A stretch of 64,000 nt of DNA from Thiotrichales bacterium (GCA_050329935.1 JBHJOI010000080.1:437-64436); one strand, 5' to 3'. Shown: positions 32,465 through 44,221, numbered from the stretch's first letter. Numbers and translations: made by a program. The notes: generated by a model from the sequence alone, not told the origin.

Positions 32465-33535
32465 ATGAAACCGGAATGGAAACGTTTCCTGAGTGACAAC
32501 GGCGCGGAGTTCGACGCCAACGACGATGTGGTCGCTAGCCATGGGAACCCGGAGCGTGAGTTGCGCATGTCCGTCAATGGCGATGTGTTCTACGACCTCT
32601 CCCATCTCGGACTGATTGAGGTCTATGGAGACGACGCACGCGCCTTTCTGCAATCGCAAACGACCAACAACCTCAATCAGGTCACACCCGAACGCAGCCA
32701 ACTCGGCGCCTATTGCTCGGCGAAGGGTCGTGTTTTTGCACTGTTCCGTTTGCTTCAACGGGGCGAGACGTTCTACCTCAGCTTGCCGCGTGACACCCTC
32801 GAATCGACGCTCAAGAAACTGCAGATGTTCGTGCTTCGCAGCAAGGTCACCCTGGCGGACGCCGACGACGCGCTGGTTCGCATGGGCCTATCGGGACCCC
32901 GAGCCGAGGAGGAACTGACCGAGGCGCTTGGCGGCTGTCCGCAAAATGTCGACGACACGCTGCCCCTGAATGGCTACACCTGCGTGCGGGTTGCCGGAGC
33001 GATGCCGCGTTTCGAGATTTTCGGCGAACTCGAGCCCATGCAGCAACTCTGGCACAAGCTTAACGTGCGCTGTGCGCCGGTCGGTCTCGAGGCGTGCATG
33101 TTGCTGGACGTGCTCGCGGCGGTACCGATGGTCAACTCGGCGAGTCAGGAAGCTTTTGTGCCGCAGATGCTCAATTTACACCTGGTCAACGGCATCAGTT
33201 TTACCAAGGGGTGCTACCCGGGTCAGGAAATCGTCGCGCGCACCCAGTACCTCGGTCAACTCAAACGCCGCATGTATCGGGTTCAATTCGCGGCCTCCGC
33301 GCCACCCGTCGGCACCGAACTCTTCTCCCCGGCCGATTCGCTCGGTCAAGCCGTGGGTCGTATCGTCAACTCGGCCCGACATCCCGACGGCGGTAGCGAA
33401 GCCTTGGCCGTGCTCCAGGTCAACGTCGTGGAACAAAGCGCCGTGATTCACCTCGGCGCGGCCGACGGCCCGGAGGGCTCGGTGTCGACGCCACCCTACG
33501 GCTTTGGCCGTGTCGAAAACGCCGACAACAACTAA
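32465..33535 (+). CDS. ygfZ: Folate-binding Fe-S maturation protein YgfZ
   Basis: ISFTKGCYPGQEIVAR signature. Confidence 0.93.
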   Translation: MKPEWKRFLSDNGAEFDANDDVVASHGNPERELRMSVNGDVFYDLSHLGLIEVYGDDARAFLQSQTTNNLNQVTPERSQLGAYCSAKGRVFALFRLLQRGETFYLSLPRDTLESTLKKLQMFVLRSKVTLADADDALVRMGLSGPRAEEELTEALGGCPQNVDDTLPLNGYTCVRVAGAMPRFEIFGELEPMQQLWHKLNVRCAPVGLEACMLLDVLAAVPMVNSASQEAFVPQMLNLHLVNGISFTKGCYPGQEIVARTQYLGQLKRRMYRVQFAASAPPVGTELFSPADSLGQAVGRIVNSARHPDGGSEALAVLQVNVVEQSAVIHLGAADGPEGSVSTPPYGFGRVENADNN

Positions 33536-33599
33536 CTGGCGTTAAGCGATGCGTGAATGAACCATTCACGCACGGCGGCAAACCGAGGTCACGGCCGCG

Positions 33600-34100
33600 C
33601 TATTGCAACATGACTGGCCGGTCGCCCCAATCTGGCCGTGCTCGATCGTTGTGCGCCGCCACGGCCGTCATCGTACCGTGACCCTGATTCGAAACATCGA
33701 CCAAGAAGTCTCGCAGAACCACCAATTGCTCGTCATCGAGCGTTTCGAGGTGCCTCAAGGTGTCGCTCAAGCGTTCGAGGGCAGTCGAAAGCGCGAGCCT
33801 AGTGCCTCGCGACCCCGGATCGAGTTGCTCGATGACCTGGAACAGCATCGGATTCGCCACGCAATCGGTACTTGTCCGAAGTTCAGGCGAGTGCGTCTTG
33901 ATCCGGTCCGCCAGGCAGTACACGCAACGGCCAAGGTTCGCCGAGGGACGCGATATCAATGCCTGGGTATCACAACGCCCACCGTGCCTGCGTTTGGCAC
34001 GGAGCACATCGATTTGTGCCGCCAGCACCGCCGACGCGGTGCGTATTTCGACCGTAAGGTACGCGTCGTAGTCAACTCCGGAAGACGATTTCTTACCCAT
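33600..34100 (-). CDS. Hypothetical protein
   Basis: 166-aa ORF filling the ygfZ-yccA gap, with an amphipathic helical C-terminal half and an AT-rich upstream region. No family recognised. Confidence 0.45.
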   Translation of the reverse strand: MGKKSSSGVDYDAYLTVEIRTASAVLAAQIDVLRAKRRHGGRCDTQALISRPSANLGRCVYCLADRIKTHSPELRTSTDCVANPMLFQVIEQLDPGSRGTRLALSTALERLSDTLRHLETLDDEQLVVLRDFLVDVSNQGHGTMTAVAAHNDRARPDWGDRPVMLQ

Positions 34101-34231
34101 CCCGCTCTATCCGTACCGTGTTTTGCGCGAACCTAATTAATAGCACCAATTGTGGAAAAGTGTGGACGGATTCGAATAAATGGTTGCAAAGTGGGGATGA
34201 GTGCTTCGAGCGGACAAACCCCGCATTGCAC

Positions 34232-34265
34232 AAAAAAAACGACCGCGTCCTTTCGAACGCGGTCG
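34232..34265 (-). terminator. Intrinsic terminator after yccA
   Basis: Minus strand CGACCGCGTTC-gaaa-GGACGCGGTCG followed by T8. Confidence 0.85.
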
Positions 34266-34315
34266 CATGAAGCGCGAGCGCAACGCCCCAGCGTCACGCC
34301 TCGGTGCGAGCGGCG

Positions 34316-34981
34316 CTAGTCGCCGCTGGCGAATCCGAGCAAGTGCATCAGACTCATGAACAAATTGAAAATGGAAACGAACAACGTGACCGTCGCCATG
34401 ATGTAGTTTGTTTCACCGCCATGGATGATGTTGCTGGTCTCGAACAGGATCAATCCGGACATCAGCAGCACGAACATGGCCGACACCGCGAGCGAAAGCC
34501 CCGGCATTTCAAAGAAGTACGCGCCGAGTCCGGCCACGAACGCGACCATGATGCCGACGAACAGGAACCCGCCCATGAAGCTGAAATCGCGCTTTGAAAC
34601 CAGCACATAGGCCGACAGCGCGACAAAGATCGCGGCCGTGCCCGCCATTGCGGTCATTACGATCTGGGAGCCGTTCGGCAAGCTAAGATAGGCGCTCATC
34701 ACTGGACCCAGGGTCAGTCCCATGAAGCCGGTCAGACCAAACACCGAAGCCAGACCCCATACGCTGTTGCGTAGCTTGTAGGTCAGGAACAAAAAGCCGA
34801 AGTAACCCGCGAGCGTGAGCAACAGGCCAGGATGCGGCAAACCCATCGCCATGGAAATGCCCGCGGTCAGGGCGCTGAACGCCAGCGTCAAAGCAAGCAA
34901 CAGATAGGTATTGCGCAGCACCCGATTCGTCGCGAGTACCCCGCGCTCGGACCGGGTGGTGGAAGTAATGACTTGACTCAT
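34316..34981 (-). CDS. yccA: Bax inhibitor-1/YccA family membrane protein (FtsH modulator)
   Basis: NRVLRNTYLLL, about 7 TM helices, KRDFSFMGGFL and IIHGGETNYIMATVTLFVSIFNLF. Confidence 0.92.
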   Translation of the reverse strand: MSQVITSTTRSERGVLATNRVLRNTYLLLALTLAFSALTAGISMAMGLPHPGLLLTLAGYFGFLFLTYKLRNSVWGLASVFGLTGFMGLTLGPVMSAYLSLPNGSQIVMTAMAGTAAIFVALSAYVLVSKRDFSFMGGFLFVGIMVAFVAGLGAYFFEMPGLSLAVSAMFVLLMSGLILFETSNIIHGGETNYIMATVTLFVSIFNLFMSLMHLLGFASGD

Positions 34982-35018
34982 GAATGGAACCTCGCTGATA
35001 ACGGATCAAATTGCAGGG

Positions 35019-35100
35019 AGCATGATCGAACTAGGCGCGAAAGAAAATCGAATCGAACCCAAATTTTACTCGAATATCTCGTATCGATCGAAAAACCTAA
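35019..35100 (-). promoter_or_regulatory. LysR-type boxes and -10-like hexamer upstream of yccA
   Basis: TCGaatatctCGT at 35070, further TCG half-sites at 35048 and 35088, and minus-strand CATGCT at 35019-35024. Confidence 0.5.
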
Positions 35101-35123
35101 CAAACTGCAAGGAGCGACGTCGT

Positions 35124-36023
35124 TCAACCGAACAAGCCGCCTCGCGAAGCATCGGTGATCATGGCAACCGCGGGATGTTTGATGCGCCGCTCGGCCGAAA
35201 TCACGTAGTACCGCTCCATGACGTCCCGGGTCCGTCCGATCACTTCGACGGCGTATTTTTTGAGTACATCGCCTTCGACGATTGTAGGTGACGTGAAGAT
35301 CCCTTCATTCGCTTCGCCAAAGACCTTCATCAACGCCCGATCCTCGAATTCCGCGACGATCTCGGGCCGTAACTCGCAGTGCTCGAACCACGACTCCAGG
35401 GCACGACGCAGCGCGCTGCTAGCGGTCGGCATCAGCATCGGCGCGCAGTCTAGGCACGCCGGAAAGTTGTCACAATAGCGCGCGGCAGAATCCCGCGCGA
35501 CGAAAAAACTGATGCCCGATTCGCCCAGCAGATGGTTGTACGCGCGCACGCTCAACGCCGGGCTTACCGGACTATCGGCAATCACCAGGTCGAGTTTATG
35601 CACCGCAAGATCCGCAAGCAGATCCGCGAATGGCGCCTCATTGCACACCAGGCGAACCTTCTCACCCATCTGTAGTACCGGCTCGAGCACCTTGTAGGCC
35701 AACAACTTCGGAACGACCATCGCGATCCCGACATGCAAGGATATTGCAGTGCCCGGCGTGCGGCCCGCGAGCATGTCCTGAAGTTCGGCGCTGAGGCGAA
35801 ACATCTCGTCCGCATACGAGAACACCACCCGGCCGGTATCGGTCAACACCAGGTTTCGACCTGACTTCTGGAACAACTTGTTGCCGATCTGCTCCTCAAG
35901 TTCGCGTAGCTGACCGCTGATAGTCTGCGGCGTAAGGTGAAGAATTTCGGAAGCGCGCGCGATCGTGCCATGCGATGCGACCGCCCAAAAATAACGCAGA
36001 TGCTTCAGATTGATGTTGTTCAT
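35124..36023 (-). CDS. nhaR: NhaR-like LysR family transcriptional activator
   Basis: INLKHLRYFWAVA...LHLTPQTISGQL, VVPKLLAY, HLLGESG and VAEFEDRALMKVFG are typical of the NhaR subfamily. Confidence 0.85.
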   Translation of the reverse strand: MNNINLKHLRYFWAVASHGTIARASEILHLTPQTISGQLRELEEQIGNKLFQKSGRNLVLTDTGRVVFSYADEMFRLSAELQDMLAGRTPGTAISLHVGIAMVVPKLLAYKVLEPVLQMGEKVRLVCNEAPFADLLADLAVHKLDLVIADSPVSPALSVRAYNHLLGESGISFFVARDSAARYCDNFPACLDCAPMLMPTASSALRRALESWFEHCELRPEIVAEFEDRALMKVFGEANEGIFTSPTIVEGDVLKKYAVEVIGRTRDVMERYYVISAERRIKHPAVAMITDASRGGLFG

Positions 36024-36117
36024 GACTGTCGCTCCGCGAATGGTTCGAACCACGCGTTGGCATCGCGCCAAGACATGCTGCCCATGGGTCTTGACGCGCA
36101 CGAACCCGCGTCCGCGC

Positions 36118-38049
36118 TCATGAGGGTTGCTCCGCGACGCCGCGTAGCGTGGCTATTTCCGCGCGTGGCTCGACCTGCCCCGCGGGTCCTGGCCCGGCCG
36201 GATCCGCAGGGTCAATCGTGTCCGTCGCTGACCCGGCGCTCAGACCTTCGCCATTCATGATCGCATCGATCTGCTCACGATCCAGGGTCTCAAACTCCAC
36301 CAGCGCGGCAGCCATCTGGTGCAGACGATCCAGATTTTCGGTGAGCAGGCGGCGACTGCGTTCGAGGTTACGCTCGATGATCAAGCGCACTTCGGCATCC
36401 ACCTGCTTGACCGTATCGTCGGCCATATGTTTGCGTTGGGACACCGACTGCCCCAGGAACACTTCGCCCTCTTCGTCCTCGTAGGCAAGCGGACCAAGGT
36501 TATCGGAGAGCCCCCATTTCGTGACCATGTTGCGCGCGATCTCGGTCGCCCGGTGGATATCGTTCTGCGCACCCGTAGTCACCGCTTCCTCGCCAAAGAT
36601 CAGCTCCTCGGCGACTCGGCCACCGAACAGGCTGGAGATCTGACTCTCAAGATAACGCTTGCTGGCGCTATACCGATCCTTTTCCGGTAGAAACACCGTC
36701 ACGCCAAGCGCACGTCCACGTGGAATGATCGAAACCTTGTGGACCGGATCATGCTCTGGCACGAGCCGACCCACGATGGTATGCCCTGCCTCGTGATAGG
36801 CCGTGAGCTGTTTCTCGGTCGGACTCATTGCCAGGCTGCGACGCTCGGCACCCATCATGATCTTGTCCTTGGCGCGCTCGAACATTGCCATCGTAACGAC
36901 CGACTGACTCGCACGGGCGGTCAACAATGCCGCTTCGTTGACCAGATTGGCGAGGTCGGCGCCGGAGAACCCAGGCGTGCCGCGCGCGATCGAGCGCGCA
37001 TCCACGTCATCGCCTAGTGCGATCTTGCGCATGTGGACCTTGAGAATCTGTTCGCGCCCAACGACGTCAGGCAAACCGACGACTACCTGTCGGTCGAAAC
37101 GACCCGGGCGCAACAGGGCCGGATCGAGCACATCGGGGCGGTTGGTCGCGGCAATGACGATCACACCCTCGTTCCCCTGGAAACCGTCCATTTCCACCAG
37201 CATCTGGTTCAAGGTTTGCTCGCGCTCGTCGTGTCCACCGCCCAGTCCAGCGCCGCGCCGGCGTCCGACCGCATCGATCTCGTCGATAAAGATGATGCAC
37301 GGCGCCTTCGCCTTGGCTTGCTCGAACAGGTCGCGCACACGAGATGCGCCAACCCCCACGAACATCTCGACGAAGTCCGAGCCGGAAATCGAGAAGAACG
37401 GCACCTTGGCCTCGCCGGCGATTGCCCTTGCCAACAGCGTCTTACCGGTGCCCGGCGGGCCAACTAGTAACACGCCGCGTGGAATGCTACCGCCGATCTT
37501 GCGGAACTTATCGGGATTACGCAGAAAATCCACCAACTCGGCAACTTCCTCACGCGCCTCATCGACACCGGCGACATCGGCCAAGGTCACCTTGACCTCG
37601 CCTTCAACCATTTCCCGCGCCCGACTCTTGCCGATATTGAAGATGCCGCCACCCGCGCCACCCTGGAGGTTTTTGCGCATGAACCAGATCCAGACGCCGA
37701 TGATCAACGCGATCGGCAATAAAGAAAGTAGCAACTGGCCCAGGAAGCTGGGGCGTTCGGCCGCGAGCGCGACGATTTCGACCTTGTGTGCCAGCAGATC
37801 GTTGACCAGCCCTGGGTCGTTGGGCTCGATTGTCTGGAAGCGCGTGCCATCGCCGCGTTCGCCGCGAATGCGCTCGCCTTGCACCTCGACCTTGCGCACG
37901 CGTTCCTGTTTCACCTCGCCGATGAACTGGCTGTAGCTGATGGTTTCACCGCCGGAATCCCGCTTGGGGCCGCCAAACAGCGATATCGCGAACCACAGGC
38001 TCGCAAGAATGACGAACCAGTTCACCGCGTTCGCTTTAGGTTTCTGCAT
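36118..38049 (-). CDS. ftsH: ATP-dependent zinc metalloprotease FtsH (probable paralog)
   Basis: Two TM helices, [35 protein letters not shown] and HEAGH. Confidence 0.96.
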
Positions 38050-38319
38050 GATGTCCTCGTCGTGTGGAGCGTCGCCTCTGCACGTAATGGGGGCAGTCTA
38101 AGTCGAATAAACCCCCAGGTTGTTCTGTTTCAACGACTCAATACATCGTAAACTCCTGCGCATTGCGACCAAACGCTCAATCTCGCCCGAAGCGCCGTGA
38201 AGAAAATTCCACCGGTGTGCCTTACCGTGGCCCCAGCGCGGAAACCTCGCGTGACCTCGATCGGAGCAGAGTGATCGCGTGCAGGTTACAAATGATGGGG
38301 TTCGTGAGCGCAACGCTCC

Positions 38320-38406
38320 GGGTTGGGCGTGAGGTGCGTGGATGCGTGGGCCGCGGCCGTCGCGTTCACAGAAATGATTTCACACTATCACCGGCCTACC
38401 CAACCC
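38320..38406. repeat. REP/MITE-like element with GGGTTGGG...CCCAACCC ends (copy 1)
   Basis: 8-bp terminal inverted repeat; the ends resemble those of the element at 56793-56852. Confidence 0.45.
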
Positions 38407-38474
38407 TGAGCAGCTTTCAACCCTCGGCGCGGCGTCCTCGTCTTTCAGGCAGGAAGCCGTCCCGCGGCATGGAT

Positions 38475-38828
38475 TCAGGGCCGTCCGGATTCCGGCGTTG
38501 CACCCGCCGCGTGCGAACGACGTCGCGTTACCGGCAGCGCTACGCGCCGCGCGAGCGTGCGTCCAGCGCGGGCGACCGCGCGGTCGAAGGCCAGGTACAT
38601 ATCGGACTGCACGTCCTCAACCACGATCTCGGGCATGCCAGAAAGTCGGATCTCGATTTTGCAGACCTTGTCGAGCCCACCCTTGGGCCCGTTCACGTCA
38701 GACAACCGGACGATGACCCGTGTGATGCGATGCCCGACCCGCGCCATAATCATACGCAATCGAAGGTCGATGTGTTTCCGTAGGGGTTCGGTGAGGGTGA
38801 GGTGATTTGCCTGTAAGTCGATGTGCAT
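38475..38828 (-). CDS. HPF/RaiA family ribosome-associated protein
   Basis: MHIDLQANHLTLTEPLRKHIDLRL...VRLSDVNGPKGGLDKVCKI...DMYLAFDRAVAR. Start taken at ATG 38828. Confidence 0.85.
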   Translation of the reverse strand: MHIDLQANHLTLTEPLRKHIDLRLRMIMARVGHRITRVIVRLSDVNGPKGGLDKVCKIEIRLSGMPEIVVEDVQSDMYLAFDRAVARAGRTLARRVALPVTRRRSHAAGATPESGRP

Positions 38829-39088
38829 CTGGCGCCTGTGTCGATCGTTGATTCCAAATTGAACTCGCGTCGTTCCGCGCGAGGCGTCGAGCAGATCCCA
38901 TTCAGCCGCACAAACGCGGTAGCCGTATATCACTATCAAGGCACCACGATCACTCAGAAATGCTGCCCCGTAGCCACACGCGTACGCCGTTTCGCCGTCG
39001 CCTGGTGCCAGAATCCGCTCGTCCGCGCTCGCGCCGTGCTCGCCGCGCACTAGGCGGCTTGCGACAAGACGCGTCAAAGTCTATTTGC

Positions 39089-39152
39089 AAACTAACGCCG
39101 CACGGACCGAGCGACTACTCAAATCTGACGTCGATAGACTCGAAATAGTCGA
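39089..39152 (-). promoter_or_regulatory. LysR-type box and -10-like hexamer upstream of the HPF-like gene
   Basis: TCGAaatagTCGA palindrome at 39140-39152 and minus-strand TAGTTT at 39089-39094. Confidence 0.5.
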
Positions 39153-39180
39153 AGCGTCCACCGCGCCCAAGGCGGCTGCA

Positions 39181-39684
39181 TCAGTATCCGGCGCCTGCCG
39201 CGGGCTGACCACTGGCGTGGGTTGGAATGATCGGTGCATCGGCGGTCAGGTTGACTTTGAACTGGATCTTGTTGGTCATGCCCATCAGTTGCTCTCGGGT
39301 CGAACCGGAGAACCAGATGCGCACGGGTTGGTACACCCCGTCATCGACCGCGATCGTCAGCGGTGTATCACCGCCCGCGACGACGACTTCGAACTGGTGC
39401 TCGCCCGGCGTGACCACGACGACACGATTGTGCTTGGTCGCACCCTCGTCCCGATTCTTGCGCGTCATACCTTCGAACACGCGCTTGCCGCCTTCGATGC
39501 GGTAGATCGACGCATCGACCTTGTATTTCTCCTGCACCGGGTCATCGCTGGGTATGTAGAACTCCACATACGCCTTTGGCCCCGCGATGAAGTGCTCCTC
39601 GCTGGGCTCGCCGCAACCGGCCATGCCCAGCAGCACGATCGGCATCAACAAGCCCCACGTTTGCTTTTTTCCTATCCTCACCAC
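39181..39684 (-). CDS. Putative lipoprotein of unknown function
   Basis: Basic N-terminus, hydrophobic stretch and lipobox MAGC; beta-rich mature part (VTPGEHQFEV). Confidence 0.6.
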   Translation of the reverse strand: MVRIGKKQTWGLLMPIVLLGMAGCGEPSEEHFIAGPKAYVEFYIPSDDPVQEKYKVDASIYRIEGGKRVFEGMTRKNRDEGATKHNRVVVVTPGEHQFEVVVAGGDTPLTIAVDDGVYQPVRIWFSGSTREQLMGMTNKIQFKVNLTADAPIIPTHASGQPAAGAGY

Positions 39685-39875
39685 TCATGACTCCGAATGT
39701 GCTTGAACGCCGGGTGATTATCCCTCAGACCCACTGGTTATCGCGAATTTCGCCGCCACCCGCGGCGCTGGCAACAACAGCGCTCTCCACGGTGGAACTC
39801 AGGACCGCGATCGGATCCGCGGCATGCCGGGTTTGACGACCCCTTCGCCAGGCGCGAACGCTCAAGGCGCTGAAA

Positions 39876-40538
39876 TCATTCGCCAACCAGTAGCACGATC
39901 AAAACCTTGGGGCCGTGTACGCCGTAAGCCAAGGTCTGTTCGATATCCGCCGACTTCGACGGTCCGGAGACCAATAACGCGTTGGTCGGCATCGCGGCGA
40001 CCCAATTCTGGCGCGCGCAGGCCTCGGCAAAAGTAGAGAATAGCTTGTCGACCTCAAGCACCGCGATATGCACCGGCGGCACCAGCGACATCAGGCGCGG
40101 TTCGTCCGCGGTGGGCCAAAGGATCAGACTGCCGGTTTCGGCGACTCCACCCAGCGTGCTCGTCAACGCGGCGTCGACTTCGGCAAACAGCGCCTGCTTC
40201 CATGCCTCGATCGGGTGCTCGTATCGCTTCGCGGGCGGTAGCGCCGCACCCGCTCGGGCCGCCGCATCGAGCGCTTGCCCCCACGGCGTCGCGCTCGCAT
40301 ACAACAGGTTGCGCAACTGCAAGCGCGCGCTGACCGCAACGCAGGCATCGATCCAGTTCGCGCGCGAGGCCGGAATCACCTCGGCTCGCACCGCAGTCAT
40401 ACGCTCGGTGAAGCGGCGCACTTTTTCCTCTGTATCCCAATCGAACCTGCGCACCGGGGCGCGGATCAGGGTCTCGCCGCCGGCGGCGAGACGCCCATCG
40501 CGCAAGCGCGCGAAAATGCGGTCGCGAGCGTCACTCAT
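39876..40538 (-). CDS. lutC: Lactate utilization protein C (LutC/LldG)
   Basis: GVAETGSL, RLMSLVPPVH and SGPSKSADIEQTLAYGVHGP. Confidence 0.9.
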   Translation of the reverse strand: MSDARDRIFARLRDGRLAAGGETLIRAPVRRFDWDTEEKVRRFTERMTAVRAEVIPASRANWIDACVAVSARLQLRNLLYASATPWGQALDAAARAGAALPPAKRYEHPIEAWKQALFAEVDAALTSTLGGVAETGSLILWPTADEPRLMSLVPPVHIAVLEVDKLFSTFAEACARQNWVAAMPTNALLVSGPSKSADIEQTLAYGVHGPKVLIVLLVGE

Positions 40539-42753: not shown

Positions 42754-43341
42754 TCAAGTCAGTTGCCCACCGAGGTAGGCCTTGACCAACGCGAGTAGCC
42801 CAAACACCATGAACAACGAAGCGGCGGCCCGATGCATCCAGACCTGCGGCAATCGACGCATCACGGTGATTCCGAGCAGAATGCCCAGCAACGAGACGGC
42901 CCAAAGCGCCAGCGTGCCGCCGATAAAAACCGAAATCAGTTCACCGGTTCCGCTTGCCAACGCGACCATCGCCAGTTGTGTCTTGTCTCCCAGCTCAGCA
43001 AGGAAAATGATCGCGAAGCTGGCCAATAACGCATTCCGCACCCGTCCGGTAACATCGCCGTCACCGTCGCCTTCATTGGAATCGCTCCAGGCGCGATACG
43101 CAAACACCAGAAACAATACACCCGCCACGATCAAAACCAGCCGCTGTGGCACGTAGCGGAACAGTACCGCGCCCAACAGCACAGCCAGCAGATTCAATGC
43201 CGCGAATGCGAGAAACACACCTCCGATCACGGGCCAGACTCGGTAGCGATGCGCCAAGGTCATCGCCATCAGTTGGCTCTTGTCGCCCATCTCCGCAAGG
43301 AACAGCAGGCCAAATGAAGACAGTATGATTGAAGGATCCAT
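42754..43341 (-). CDS. TMEM165/GDT1 (UPF0016) family Mn2+/Ca2+ transporter
   Basis: Two signature motifs, EMGDKSQ and ELGDKTQ; about 6 TM helices. Confidence 0.92.
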   Translation of the reverse strand: MDPSIILSSFGLLFLAEMGDKSQLMAMTLAHRYRVWPVIGGVFLAFAALNLLAVLLGAVLFRYVPQRLVLIVAGVLFLVFAYRAWSDSNEGDGDGDVTGRVRNALLASFAIIFLAELGDKTQLAMVALASGTGELISVFIGGTLALWAVSLLGILLGITVMRRLPQVWMHRAAASLFMVFGLLALVKAYLGGQLT

Positions 43342-43532
43342 GACGAAAACGACCCGGTGATTGGTAGACCCGCCCTCGGTTGCGCGGAACACCGGAGCGA
43401 GTGATTCGACCGTTTGCGCCGGCGCGCGGATTGTAGCCGATGCCTGTGCCAATCTCGAACCAAGCTAGCGTTCGCCTTACATCCATTGCGCGGACGCCGC
43501 CGAGAGTGTAAGGCACTCCGAGTTCGGTTGGC

Positions 43533-43787: not shown

Positions 43788-43855
43788 ATATCGATATCAT
43801 CGATATCATATAGCGAATAATATCGTTTGATTGACCTGAAACGACTTCGTATAGT
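43788..43855 (+). promoter_or_regulatory. Sigma70 promoter with upstream LysR-type palindrome
   Basis: ATATCGAT-atc-ATCGATAT at 43788-43806; TTGATT (43827) -17 bp- TATAGT (43850). Confidence 0.65.
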
Positions 43856-43888: not shown

Positions 43889-44221
43889 ATGACTGCCACC
43901 ACATACTACACGCTCGATAATGAAGGCTATTTAATAGATCCCGAGGACTGGACCGAGGCCGTTGCTGACATCCTGGCCGAACACGAGGGGATCGCGTTGA
44001 CCGCCGAGCACCGTCAGGTTCTGCAATTTATGCGTGTTTATTGGAGCGAGCACCGCATCGCGCCCGATGTTCGCCACGTGATCGACCAGCTCGCGCGAAC
44101 GCAGGGTATCGGAAAGACACTCGCCAAGGAGCGTCTGTTCAAGCTGTTTCCCTACGGCTACGTGCTACAGGCTTGCAGAATCGCCGGGATGCGACGCCCA
44201 CGCGCGTGGAGCACGGGCTAA
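43889..44221 (+). CDS. DsrC/TusE family sulfur relay-like protein lacking the terminal Cys
   Basis: LDNEGYLIDPEDW, LTAEH, LFKLFPYG and ACRIAGMRRP; ends in RAWSTG. Confidence 0.88.
   Translation: MTATTYYTLDNEGYLIDPEDWTEAVADILAEHEGIALTAEHRQVLQFMRVYWSEHRIAPDVRHVIDQLARTQGIGKTLAKERLFKLFPYGYVLQACRIAGMRRPRAWSTG

Follow-up and report, generated by a model that had tools for sequence, protein, structure and literature searches.

In a 64,000-nucleotide stretch of DNA from a Thiotrichales bacterium (GCA_050329935.1, JBHJOI010000080.1:437-64436; hereafter the window), four minus-strand genes between 34.2 and 39.2 kb encode a paralogue of the ribosome hibernation factors HPF/RaiA, an intact accessory FtsH protease (ftsH2), a LysR-type regulator of the NhaR type and a BI-1/YccA-like membrane protein, in the order hpf-ftsH2-nhaR-yccA. 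We consider it probable that this cluster represents, in locally rearranged form, an NhaR regulon that is widely conserved. The NhaR-type regulator would bind a two-part operator, with box 1 (TCG-N7-CGA) near -65 and box 2 (ATTCGAyTTT) near -38, and from there would control the sigma-70 promoters of a dedicated HPF/RaiA-like paralogue and of the BI-1/YccA membrane protein. In most relatives nhaR is placed divergently from hpf-yccA. In the species studied here and its sister species, an accessory ftsH2, together with nhaR, lies between hpf and yccA. The most likely source of ftsH2 and nhaR expression is read-through that starts at the hpf promoter, a degenerate promoter before ftsH2, or both. 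Read-through from an NhaR-dependent hpf promoter would bring nhaR under its own control and would therefore create positive feedback. By analogy with NhaR of Escherichia coli, the signal may be Na+ or alkaline pH. A first-pass annotation of the window had proposed that NhaR controls hpf, ftsH and yccA through promoters of a shared architecture, serving translation shutdown and membrane protein quality control instead of Na+ export. This interpretation is partly supported, being right for hpf and yccA and overreaching for ftsH and for the exclusion of Na+ export.

All four genes are located where that annotation had placed them. The yccA-like gene (34316-34981, minus strand, 221 aa) belongs to the BI-1/Bax1-I family (Pfam Bax1-I, 157 bits against 34.1); its product is 95% identical to that of the sister species (genome G001), and it is the single Bax1-I gene of the genome. 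The only NCBIfam match of the protein, to the YccA equivalog NF007765, scored 244.9, under the cut-off of 353, and by its sequence the protein is best filed as BI-1/YccA-like. The regulator gene (35124-36023, minus strand, 299 aa) encodes both the HTH_1 and the LysR_substrate domain of Pfam and reached 277.9 bits with NCBIfam model NF008284 (cut-off 219), the next-best family model giving only 88.7; the recognition helix reads LTPQTISGQ, as compared with LTPQTITGQ in E. coli NhaR. The score above the cut-off and the near-identical helix bear out its assignment to the NhaR type. The third gene, ftsH2 (36118-38049, minus strand), scored 848 bits with TIGR01241 (cut-off 600). Its Walker A, Walker B, pore loop, arginine finger and HExxH motifs are all kept (GPPGTGKT at 197, MFVG at 229, DEID at 256, RPGR at 314, HExxH at 419), and the FtsH_ext domain is present.

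The HPF/RaiA-like paralogue of the S30AE family (38475-38828, minus strand, 117 aa) scored 40.5 bits with PF02482 (gathering score 23.7) and 29.7 with the equivalog TIGR00741, below its cut-off of 40.9. Among solved structures, the closest relatives are factors bound to the ribosome (7m4z chain v, 27 bits; 8rd8 chain D, 22.5 bits), at E-values from 3e-5 to 5e-3. A longer open reading frame of 200 aa with a TTG start (38475-39077) was considered and rejected as the hpf gene. Because the S30AE domain begins only at residue 84-86 of that frame and its N-terminal extension had no tblastn match in G001, where the intergenic gap is just 145 bp, the start codon was placed at the ATG at 38828. The genome has three S30AE genes, and the canonical hpf adjoins rpoN on contig C96. 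The earlier remark that the window lacks nhaA was found to hold for the entire assembly as well: PF06965 had no match in either the window or the 92%-complete assembly, in which four CPA-type antiporter genes are present.

The operator was defined from relatives. The divergent intergenic regions of 28 orthologous promoters share ACTTCG-N7-CGAA, followed after about 17 nt by AATAATATTCGACTTTT. The consensus of box 2 is ATTCGACTTTT, with its TCG 31 nt after the TCG of box 1. A TAnnnT hexamer lies exactly at +59 in 25 of the 28 promoters, and for most of them the start codon of the target lies between about +100 and +120. The motif conservation upstream of orthologous nhaR-linked genes, which the first-pass annotation had suggested looking for, is thus present, together with the hexamer. 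If transcription starts approximately 7 nt past the hexamer, the centres of the boxes would lie near -65 (box 1) and -38 (box 2). In the classic LysR layout a recognition site is found near -65 and an activation site near -35, and the geometry fits a LysR-type promoter because of these predicted centres.

A position-weight model with a fixed site of 47 nt was built from the 28 promoters, aligned by anchoring on ten fixed letters, which inflates the information at those letters and leaves the remaining conserved columns unaffected. When the background was taken from the genome itself, AT-rich DNA dominated the result, and the training-set background was used instead. Matches of at least 8 bits were found in 56 of 87 loci, and 28 of those 56 were outside the training set (among them L066, whose contig also carries the training locus L016). 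In the genome studied here no position reached 8 bits, the maximum being 6.0.

In E. coli, NhaR is a LysR-type, Na+-responsive regulator whose regulon includes nhaA, pgaABCD and osmC, with nhaA as the textbook target. At the nhaA locus of E. coli K-12 the best match of the model within 4 kb was AGCTCGTAAAAAACGAAT..., about 105 nt before nhaA; at the pgaA locus the best match within 7 kb lay about 306 nt ahead of the ATG, a position that would fit the long 5' leader of pgaA. No convincing match was seen in the upstream regions of E. coli osmC, yccA and rmf, and in this respect E. coli yccA differs from the yccA-like gene of the window. An excerpt of PMC6307784 describes the NhaR motif as 'not well characterized', and the consensus proposed there, TCgaAAAAatCtA, agrees with box 1. 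The TCG-N7-CGA box is, on sequence grounds, a predicted NhaR operator, as had been suggested for the window, and the recovery of the E. coli nhaA and pgaA promoters by the same model bears this out.

The three boxes reported earlier are indeed at 39140 (TCGaaatagtCGA), 38146 (TCGtaaactcCTG) and 35070 (TCGaatatctCGT), with hexamers at 39089, 38095 and 35019, respectively, and the distance between box and hexamer is 51 bp in each pair. The architecture thought to be common to all three is complete only at yccA. Here box 1, the recognition site (ACGagatattCGA, 35070-35082, minus strand), is conserved in G001. It is followed by box 2, which resembles an activation site (ATTCGATTTTCTTT, 35040-35053, minus strand), has its TCG 31 nt after box 1, matches the consensus and is identical in 14 of 14 positions in G001. 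Counted from the first base of box 1, the -10-like hexamer CATGCT (35019-35024, minus strand; CATGAT in G001) begins at +58. The two-site LysR layout is therefore seen in full, with box 2 at +31 and the hexamer at +58, and all three elements are kept in the sister species in surroundings that are not. The 47-nt site ranked 14 of 7,022,422 positions in the genome, and about 0.0004 such sites are expected in its 142-bp region. We regard the evidence for the yccA site as strong.

At hpf, box 1 (TTCGactatttCGAG, 39139-39153, minus strand; the same box as that reported at 39140) is conserved in G001, and the -10-like hexamer TAGTTT (39089-39094, minus strand; TAGGGT in G001) lies 58 nt after it. 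Box 1 alone ranked 260 of 7.03 million positions, with 0.025 expected in the region, or 0.0015 when the hexamer is required. Box 2 is absent at +31 in both genomes. When box 2 was allowed to shift by one base, this flexible model ranked the hpf, yccA and ftsH sites 22, 65 and 16,446 of 7,021,262, and we grade the hpf site as moderate. Of the weaker boxes that had been described 21-22 bp closer to each gene, the one at yccA is the conserved box 2. Box 1 of hpf lies about 310 nt upstream of the ATG, and a long 5' leader of about 254 nt (38829-39088, minus strand) is predicted, of which about 213 nt are not present in G001 and are not a repeat. Within this leader a terminator-like stem-loop (38864-38883) is situated 36 nt before the start codon and might act as an attenuator. 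A search of Rfam with positions 33000-40500 gave zero matches at E<=1, and hence no known riboswitch or leader in that interval.

The linkage of these genes is conserved beyond the window. NhaR-like genes are patchy among relatives, being found in 7 of 41 genomes at E<=1e-40, this genome included. The gene order hpf-ftsH2-nhaR-yccA is identical in G001, and in five loci of four further genomes nhaR is divergent from yccA or from hpf-yccA. In a wider scan, the neighbours of NhaR genes were analysed for the best 80 of 586 confirmed stretches. An hpf-like gene was found within 29 of the 80 loci, yccA within 22, both within 16 and nhaA within 11, and none contained ftsH; 41 loci had none of these genes (L068 is counted among them, its S30AE gene having been detected by Pfam alone). 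The suggested four-gene neighbourhood is accordingly widespread as far as the HPF-like gene and yccA are concerned, and not for ftsH. The view that such a regulon operates rather than Na+ export is also not supported as a general rule, given the 11 loci with nhaA and the four CPA-type antiporter genes of this genome. Other recurrent NhaR neighbours or motif-driven genes encode HtpX-type M48 peptidases, tandem universal stress proteins (Usp), CPA antiporters, carbonic anhydrase, YgaP-like rhodanese and GTP-dependent phosphoenolpyruvate (PEP) carboxykinase.

The reverse test started from the hpf-like subfamily, which was present in 8 of 151 class-level genomes. In the seven genomes other than this one, NhaR was divergently adjacent in six and yccA also present in four; since NhaR adjoins the gene in six of seven other carriers, the HPF paralogue can be regarded as an essentially NhaR-associated subfamily. 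The gene behind it is variable, as hpf is followed by a GTP-dependent PEP carboxykinase gene in L035 (5546-7949) and by an M48 peptidase gene in L086. Cultured carriers of the divergent locus include Marinomonas lutimaris and M. alcarazii (hpf) and Undibacterium terreum and U. luofuense (yccA).

It should be added that ftsH2 is one of three M41/FtsH genes of the genome, the housekeeping copy lying in rlmE-ftsH-folP-glmM on contig C6. The C6 copy passes the gamma-type equivalog PRK10733 (cut-off 1008) with 1057, whereas ftsH2 fails it with 930, and the two are 67% identical. Among 14 family genomes the ftsH2 type is confined to this one (G000) and G001; at E<=1e-285 it was found in 1 of 400 class genomes, namely this genome (G260 was unscored), and the best plasmid match by tblastn was a Methylomagnum plasmid ftsH at 68%. 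In the FtsH tree, for which row hk_G005 was disregarded because of a wrong reading frame, ftsH2 is placed outside the family's housekeeping clade (99/99 support), its exact position not being resolved. Between the two species ftsH2 is 86.9% identical, as compared with 97.7% for the housekeeping copy. From these comparisons ftsH2 appears to be a recent, fast-evolving and lineage-specific extra FtsH copy that this species shares with its sister alone. G002 carries a third type of FtsH, with 45-50% identity to either of the other types, at L017:10440-12269, 1.6 kb beyond nhaR-yccA, which may be coincidence; this genome's own copy of the third type lies elsewhere, at C95:52349-53629, where the contig end cuts it.

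The only terminator-like site downstream of the four genes is an intrinsic terminator after yccA (34239-34266, minus strand; 12-bp stem and T run), and the 94-bp gap between ftsH2 and nhaR contains no recognisable promoter or box for nhaR. Read-through from hpf to ftsH2 and nhaR is plausible for both of these reasons. The spacer between hpf and ftsH2 contains a dispersed element resembling repetitive extragenic palindromic sequences or miniature inverted-repeat transposable elements (38314-38440, about 130 bp, no strand assigned), with copies of 68-82% identity on more than 10 contigs (C79, C65, C23, C42, C51, C74 and others), and its position corresponds roughly to the extra sequence of this spacer relative to G001. 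The predicted RNA fold of the spacer was no better than that of shuffled sequences (z = -0.46). In metatranscriptome X7, 6% of words were matched, and two near-identical contig pieces fell inside ftsH2 (36411-36679 and 37704-37961), for which carry-over of DNA is possible. The sequencing depth over 36.7-37.6 kb derives from ftsH genes of other organisms.

Whether ftsH2 takes part in the regulon directly is the point on which other explanations turn. The first-pass annotation had assigned hpf, ftsH2 and yccA one NhaR-dependent promoter each, all of a single architecture, and for ftsH2 we hold this to be possible and on balance unlikely. The box as originally defined is at chance level: its left half-site is CAG (CAA in G001) instead of TCG, box 2 is missing, and the site ranked 4478 with the full model and 28,760 with box 1, 0.48 such sites being expected in the region; the aligned site in G001 scored even worse (-40), and ftsH, as noted above, adjoins NhaR in none of the 80 loci. 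What speaks for direct control is the right half-site with its flank (TTTACGATGTATTGA, 38138-38152, minus strand), which scored 11.6 bits, a value equalled by 121 of 7.03 million positions, three of which also have TAnnnT at +58/59; 0.014 such sites are expected in the 425-bp region, although this sub-model was chosen after the match had been seen. Moreover, CGATGT and TAGACT are kept at the canonical distance (48 nt in this genome, 49 nt in G001), the CTTAG context of the -10 resembles other NhaR-type promoters (for example, L116), and HtpX, which like FtsH is a protease of membrane quality control, recurs among the candidate targets of NhaR. With its left half and box 2 missing, the half-site may be a relic NhaR site. 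NhaR control of ftsH is the most eye-catching of the earlier claims and the weakest one, unproven and specific to one small lineage.

The opposite explanation, in which ftsH2 has nothing to do with NhaR and is an acquired or ancient accessory protease with a promoter of its own, such as a heat-shock promoter of the sigma-32 type, its adjacency being a historical accident, deserves appreciable weight, if less than an even chance. Its narrow distribution, its branching outside the housekeeping clade, its faster divergence and the repeat element in the hpf-ftsH2 spacer all favour such a history. So does a conserved block upstream of the gene (38085-38100, minus strand), consisting of TAGACT (38095-38100) and CCCCCATTA (38085-38093), which is either a sigma-70 -10 or a sigma-32-like -10. 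The counterpart of the latter in G001 is GTGAA-N15-CTCCAT, and the genome's own dnaK and htpX promoters have TTGAA-N14/15-CCCCAT; a sigma-32 promoter would nevertheless fit in part only, since the window has GTTTA and no TTGAA at the right distance. No terminator separates ftsH2 from either hpf upstream or nhaR downstream, and nhaR, which follows after 94 bp and has no promoter signal, is thereby tied transcriptionally to ftsH2. The neighbourhood is also functionally sensible, because E. coli YccA is a known modulator of FtsH. Finally, all boxes could be chance or generic T-N11-A look-alikes of LysR sites, with the genes constitutive or under other regulators. The exact six-base core is common (about 1200 expected in a genome of 61% G+C, by our own estimate from base composition), the best box-1 matches are mostly intragenic, and a similar palindrome accompanies a different LysR gene on contig C14. 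This explanation is nonetheless very improbable: both species retain half-sites, box 2 and hexamers in intergenic DNA that otherwise aligns poorly, the geometry is that of the 28 training promoters and of E. coli nhaA and pgaA, high-scoring sites occur in 28 further NhaR loci, and three sites ranking in the top 65 cluster around nhaR.

Several observations weigh against the regulon reading that we prefer. The model was anchored on the very pattern that it describes, its training genomes are mostly AT-richer, and many top-scoring positions of this genome fall within coding regions. The yccA site itself scores -2.7, as compared with 35-58 bits for typical orthologous sites. At hpf, where box 2 is lacking, the fixed 47-nt model does no better than chance, 0.84 such sites being expected in the region. 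The 254-nt leader is unusual, orthologues having about 30-50 nt by the same prediction. A scan of the region for the sigma-70 consensus gave no promoters against 1.8 expected; activator-dependent promoters are often weak matches to sigma-70. The clade of closest NhaR proteins (65-72% identity) is mostly without hpf, yccA and strong motif matches, and X7, the sole RNA run, consists of contigs only and carries no information on starts, ends or strand.

A further promoter of the NhaR type was found on the plus strand of the window at 43788-43855, with ATCG-N7-CGAT, box 2 (AATAATATCGTTTGA) and TATAGT at +59, 98 nt before a DsrC/TusE-like gene (43889-44221). In G001 its half-sites, hexamer and box 2 (15 of 15 positions) are kept with varying spacers, on the same contig as the hpf-yccA cluster. 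Of the 65 positions in 3.5 Mb that the flexible model scores best, three fall in the 9 kb surrounding nhaR, for which we estimate a Poisson probability of about 7e-4, calculated post hoc. A gene for a GDT1-family divalent cation/proton antiporter (42754-43452, minus strand) is divergent from the DsrC-like gene and lies some 340 nt away from the palindromic box.

The HtpX of this genome has orthologues (60-67% identity) that are divergent NhaR neighbours in L050, L065 and L081, with motif scores of 17.9 bits in L050 and 55.0 bits in L065 and none of at least 8 in L081. The genome's own htpX (start at 11698 on contig C25) has TCG-N7-CGAA and TAGTAT at +58/59 (C25:11471-11540) upstream of its sigma-32-like promoter. 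In G001 both half-sites and the hexamer are kept with a different spacer; in G002, G003 and G012 neither box nor hexamer was seen. Judged by these sites, htpX and the DsrC-like gene are probably also controlled by NhaR in this genus. The theme of membrane protein quality control, put forward in the first-pass annotation, is strengthened by HtpX as a divergent neighbour in three loci and by the conserved box at the genome's own htpX, and it becomes broader than proposed because HtpX joins it. In the clade of closest NhaR proteins the motif also precedes genes for YgaP-like membrane rhodaneses (L023:1512 and 3159, L024:5985, L031:5942, L034:1543), and the YgaP-like and DsrC-like genes as candidate targets hint at a sulfur-relay branch of the regulon.

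Among other box-1 matches of the genome, C14:11883 belongs to another, HdfR-like LysR gene divergent from purM, and C67:27793 lies ahead of a multihaem cytochrome gene. One of the best matches, C65:57788-57805 (match 57802), precedes a gene for a CPA-type Na+/H+ exchanger by about 280 nt and has neither box 2 nor a hexamer in the canonical positions. The genes flanking the four-gene cluster, 39181-39684 and 33600-34100 (both on the minus strand), have no Pfam or NCBIfam family match and are kept in place in G001 at 68% and 63% identity, respectively; the upstream one, 39181-39684, contains a lipoprotein-like LAGC motif.

In comparison with known systems, the regulator of the window is 40% identical to E. 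coli NhaR and shares with it the family model, the type of recognition helix and the type of operator. The predicted targets differ, being the HPF paralogue, yccA and probably htpX and the DsrC-like gene rather than nhaA, and nhaR lies downstream of ftsH2 here and downstream of nhaA in E. coli. As in the E. coli YccA-FtsH(-HflKC) system, a YccA-like protein occurs together with an intact FtsH, here with both genes in one cluster; in E. coli yccA and ftsH are unlinked. The FtsH of the window is an accessory third copy instead of the housekeeping one. The HPF-like protein resembles HPF/RaiA (YfiA) hibernation factors, RaiA paired with Balon among them, in exceeding the S30AE gathering score and in its ribosome-bound nearest solved relatives. 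It differs from them in falling below TIGR00741 and in being defined by its linkage to NhaR, usually with yccA and not Balon following. Accessory FtsH copies are known from stress and proteostasis islands, such as FtsH2 of Pseudomonas aeruginosa clone C. With that type ftsH2 shares the status of an extra, divergent, motif-intact FtsH beside stress genes in a narrow lineage; unlike it, the window has no small heat-shock, ClpG or island context and no anomaly of base composition.

Our literature search, which did not cover databases of the RegPrecise type, returned no paper linking NhaR to YccA, HPF/RaiA or FtsH as targets; the single match for NhaR together with YccA, PMC4222967, was rejected as such a link, the co-mention being coincidental. 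A tie to ribosome hibernation has a precedent by analogy: according to an excerpt of PMC10003395, NhaR of E. coli binds the rmf and rsd promoters, and deletion of nhaR leads to more RMF and 100S ribosomes.

The two-box operator with its fixed promoter geometry is sharper than the prior NhaR motif and picks out nhaA and pgaA, both known as targets in E. coli. A wider generalisation, that NhaR in many gamma- and betaproteobacteria is the master of a regulon for proteostasis and hibernation under cation or alkaline stress and not mainly an antiporter switch, and that this lineage has captured an FtsH paralogue of its own, can be offered only tentatively, and we doubt that it holds in full. Such a regulon would include a ribosome-silencing factor, YccA, HtpX and the sulfur-relay proteins (DsrC-like and YgaP-like rhodanese). 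If it is true, FtsH2, YccA and the HPF paralogue would form a self-amplifying unit acting on stalled membrane-protein synthesis, with the regulator gene placed behind FtsH2. The comparisons made here suggest new targets for a regulator family that is itself known, along with a lineage-specific insertion of FtsH. Outside the enterics the conserved NhaR targets would be a special HPF/RaiA paralogue, YccA and often HtpX, which differ from the textbook set, and they suggest that ion or alkaline stress is wired to ribosome silencing and to the quality control of membrane proteins.

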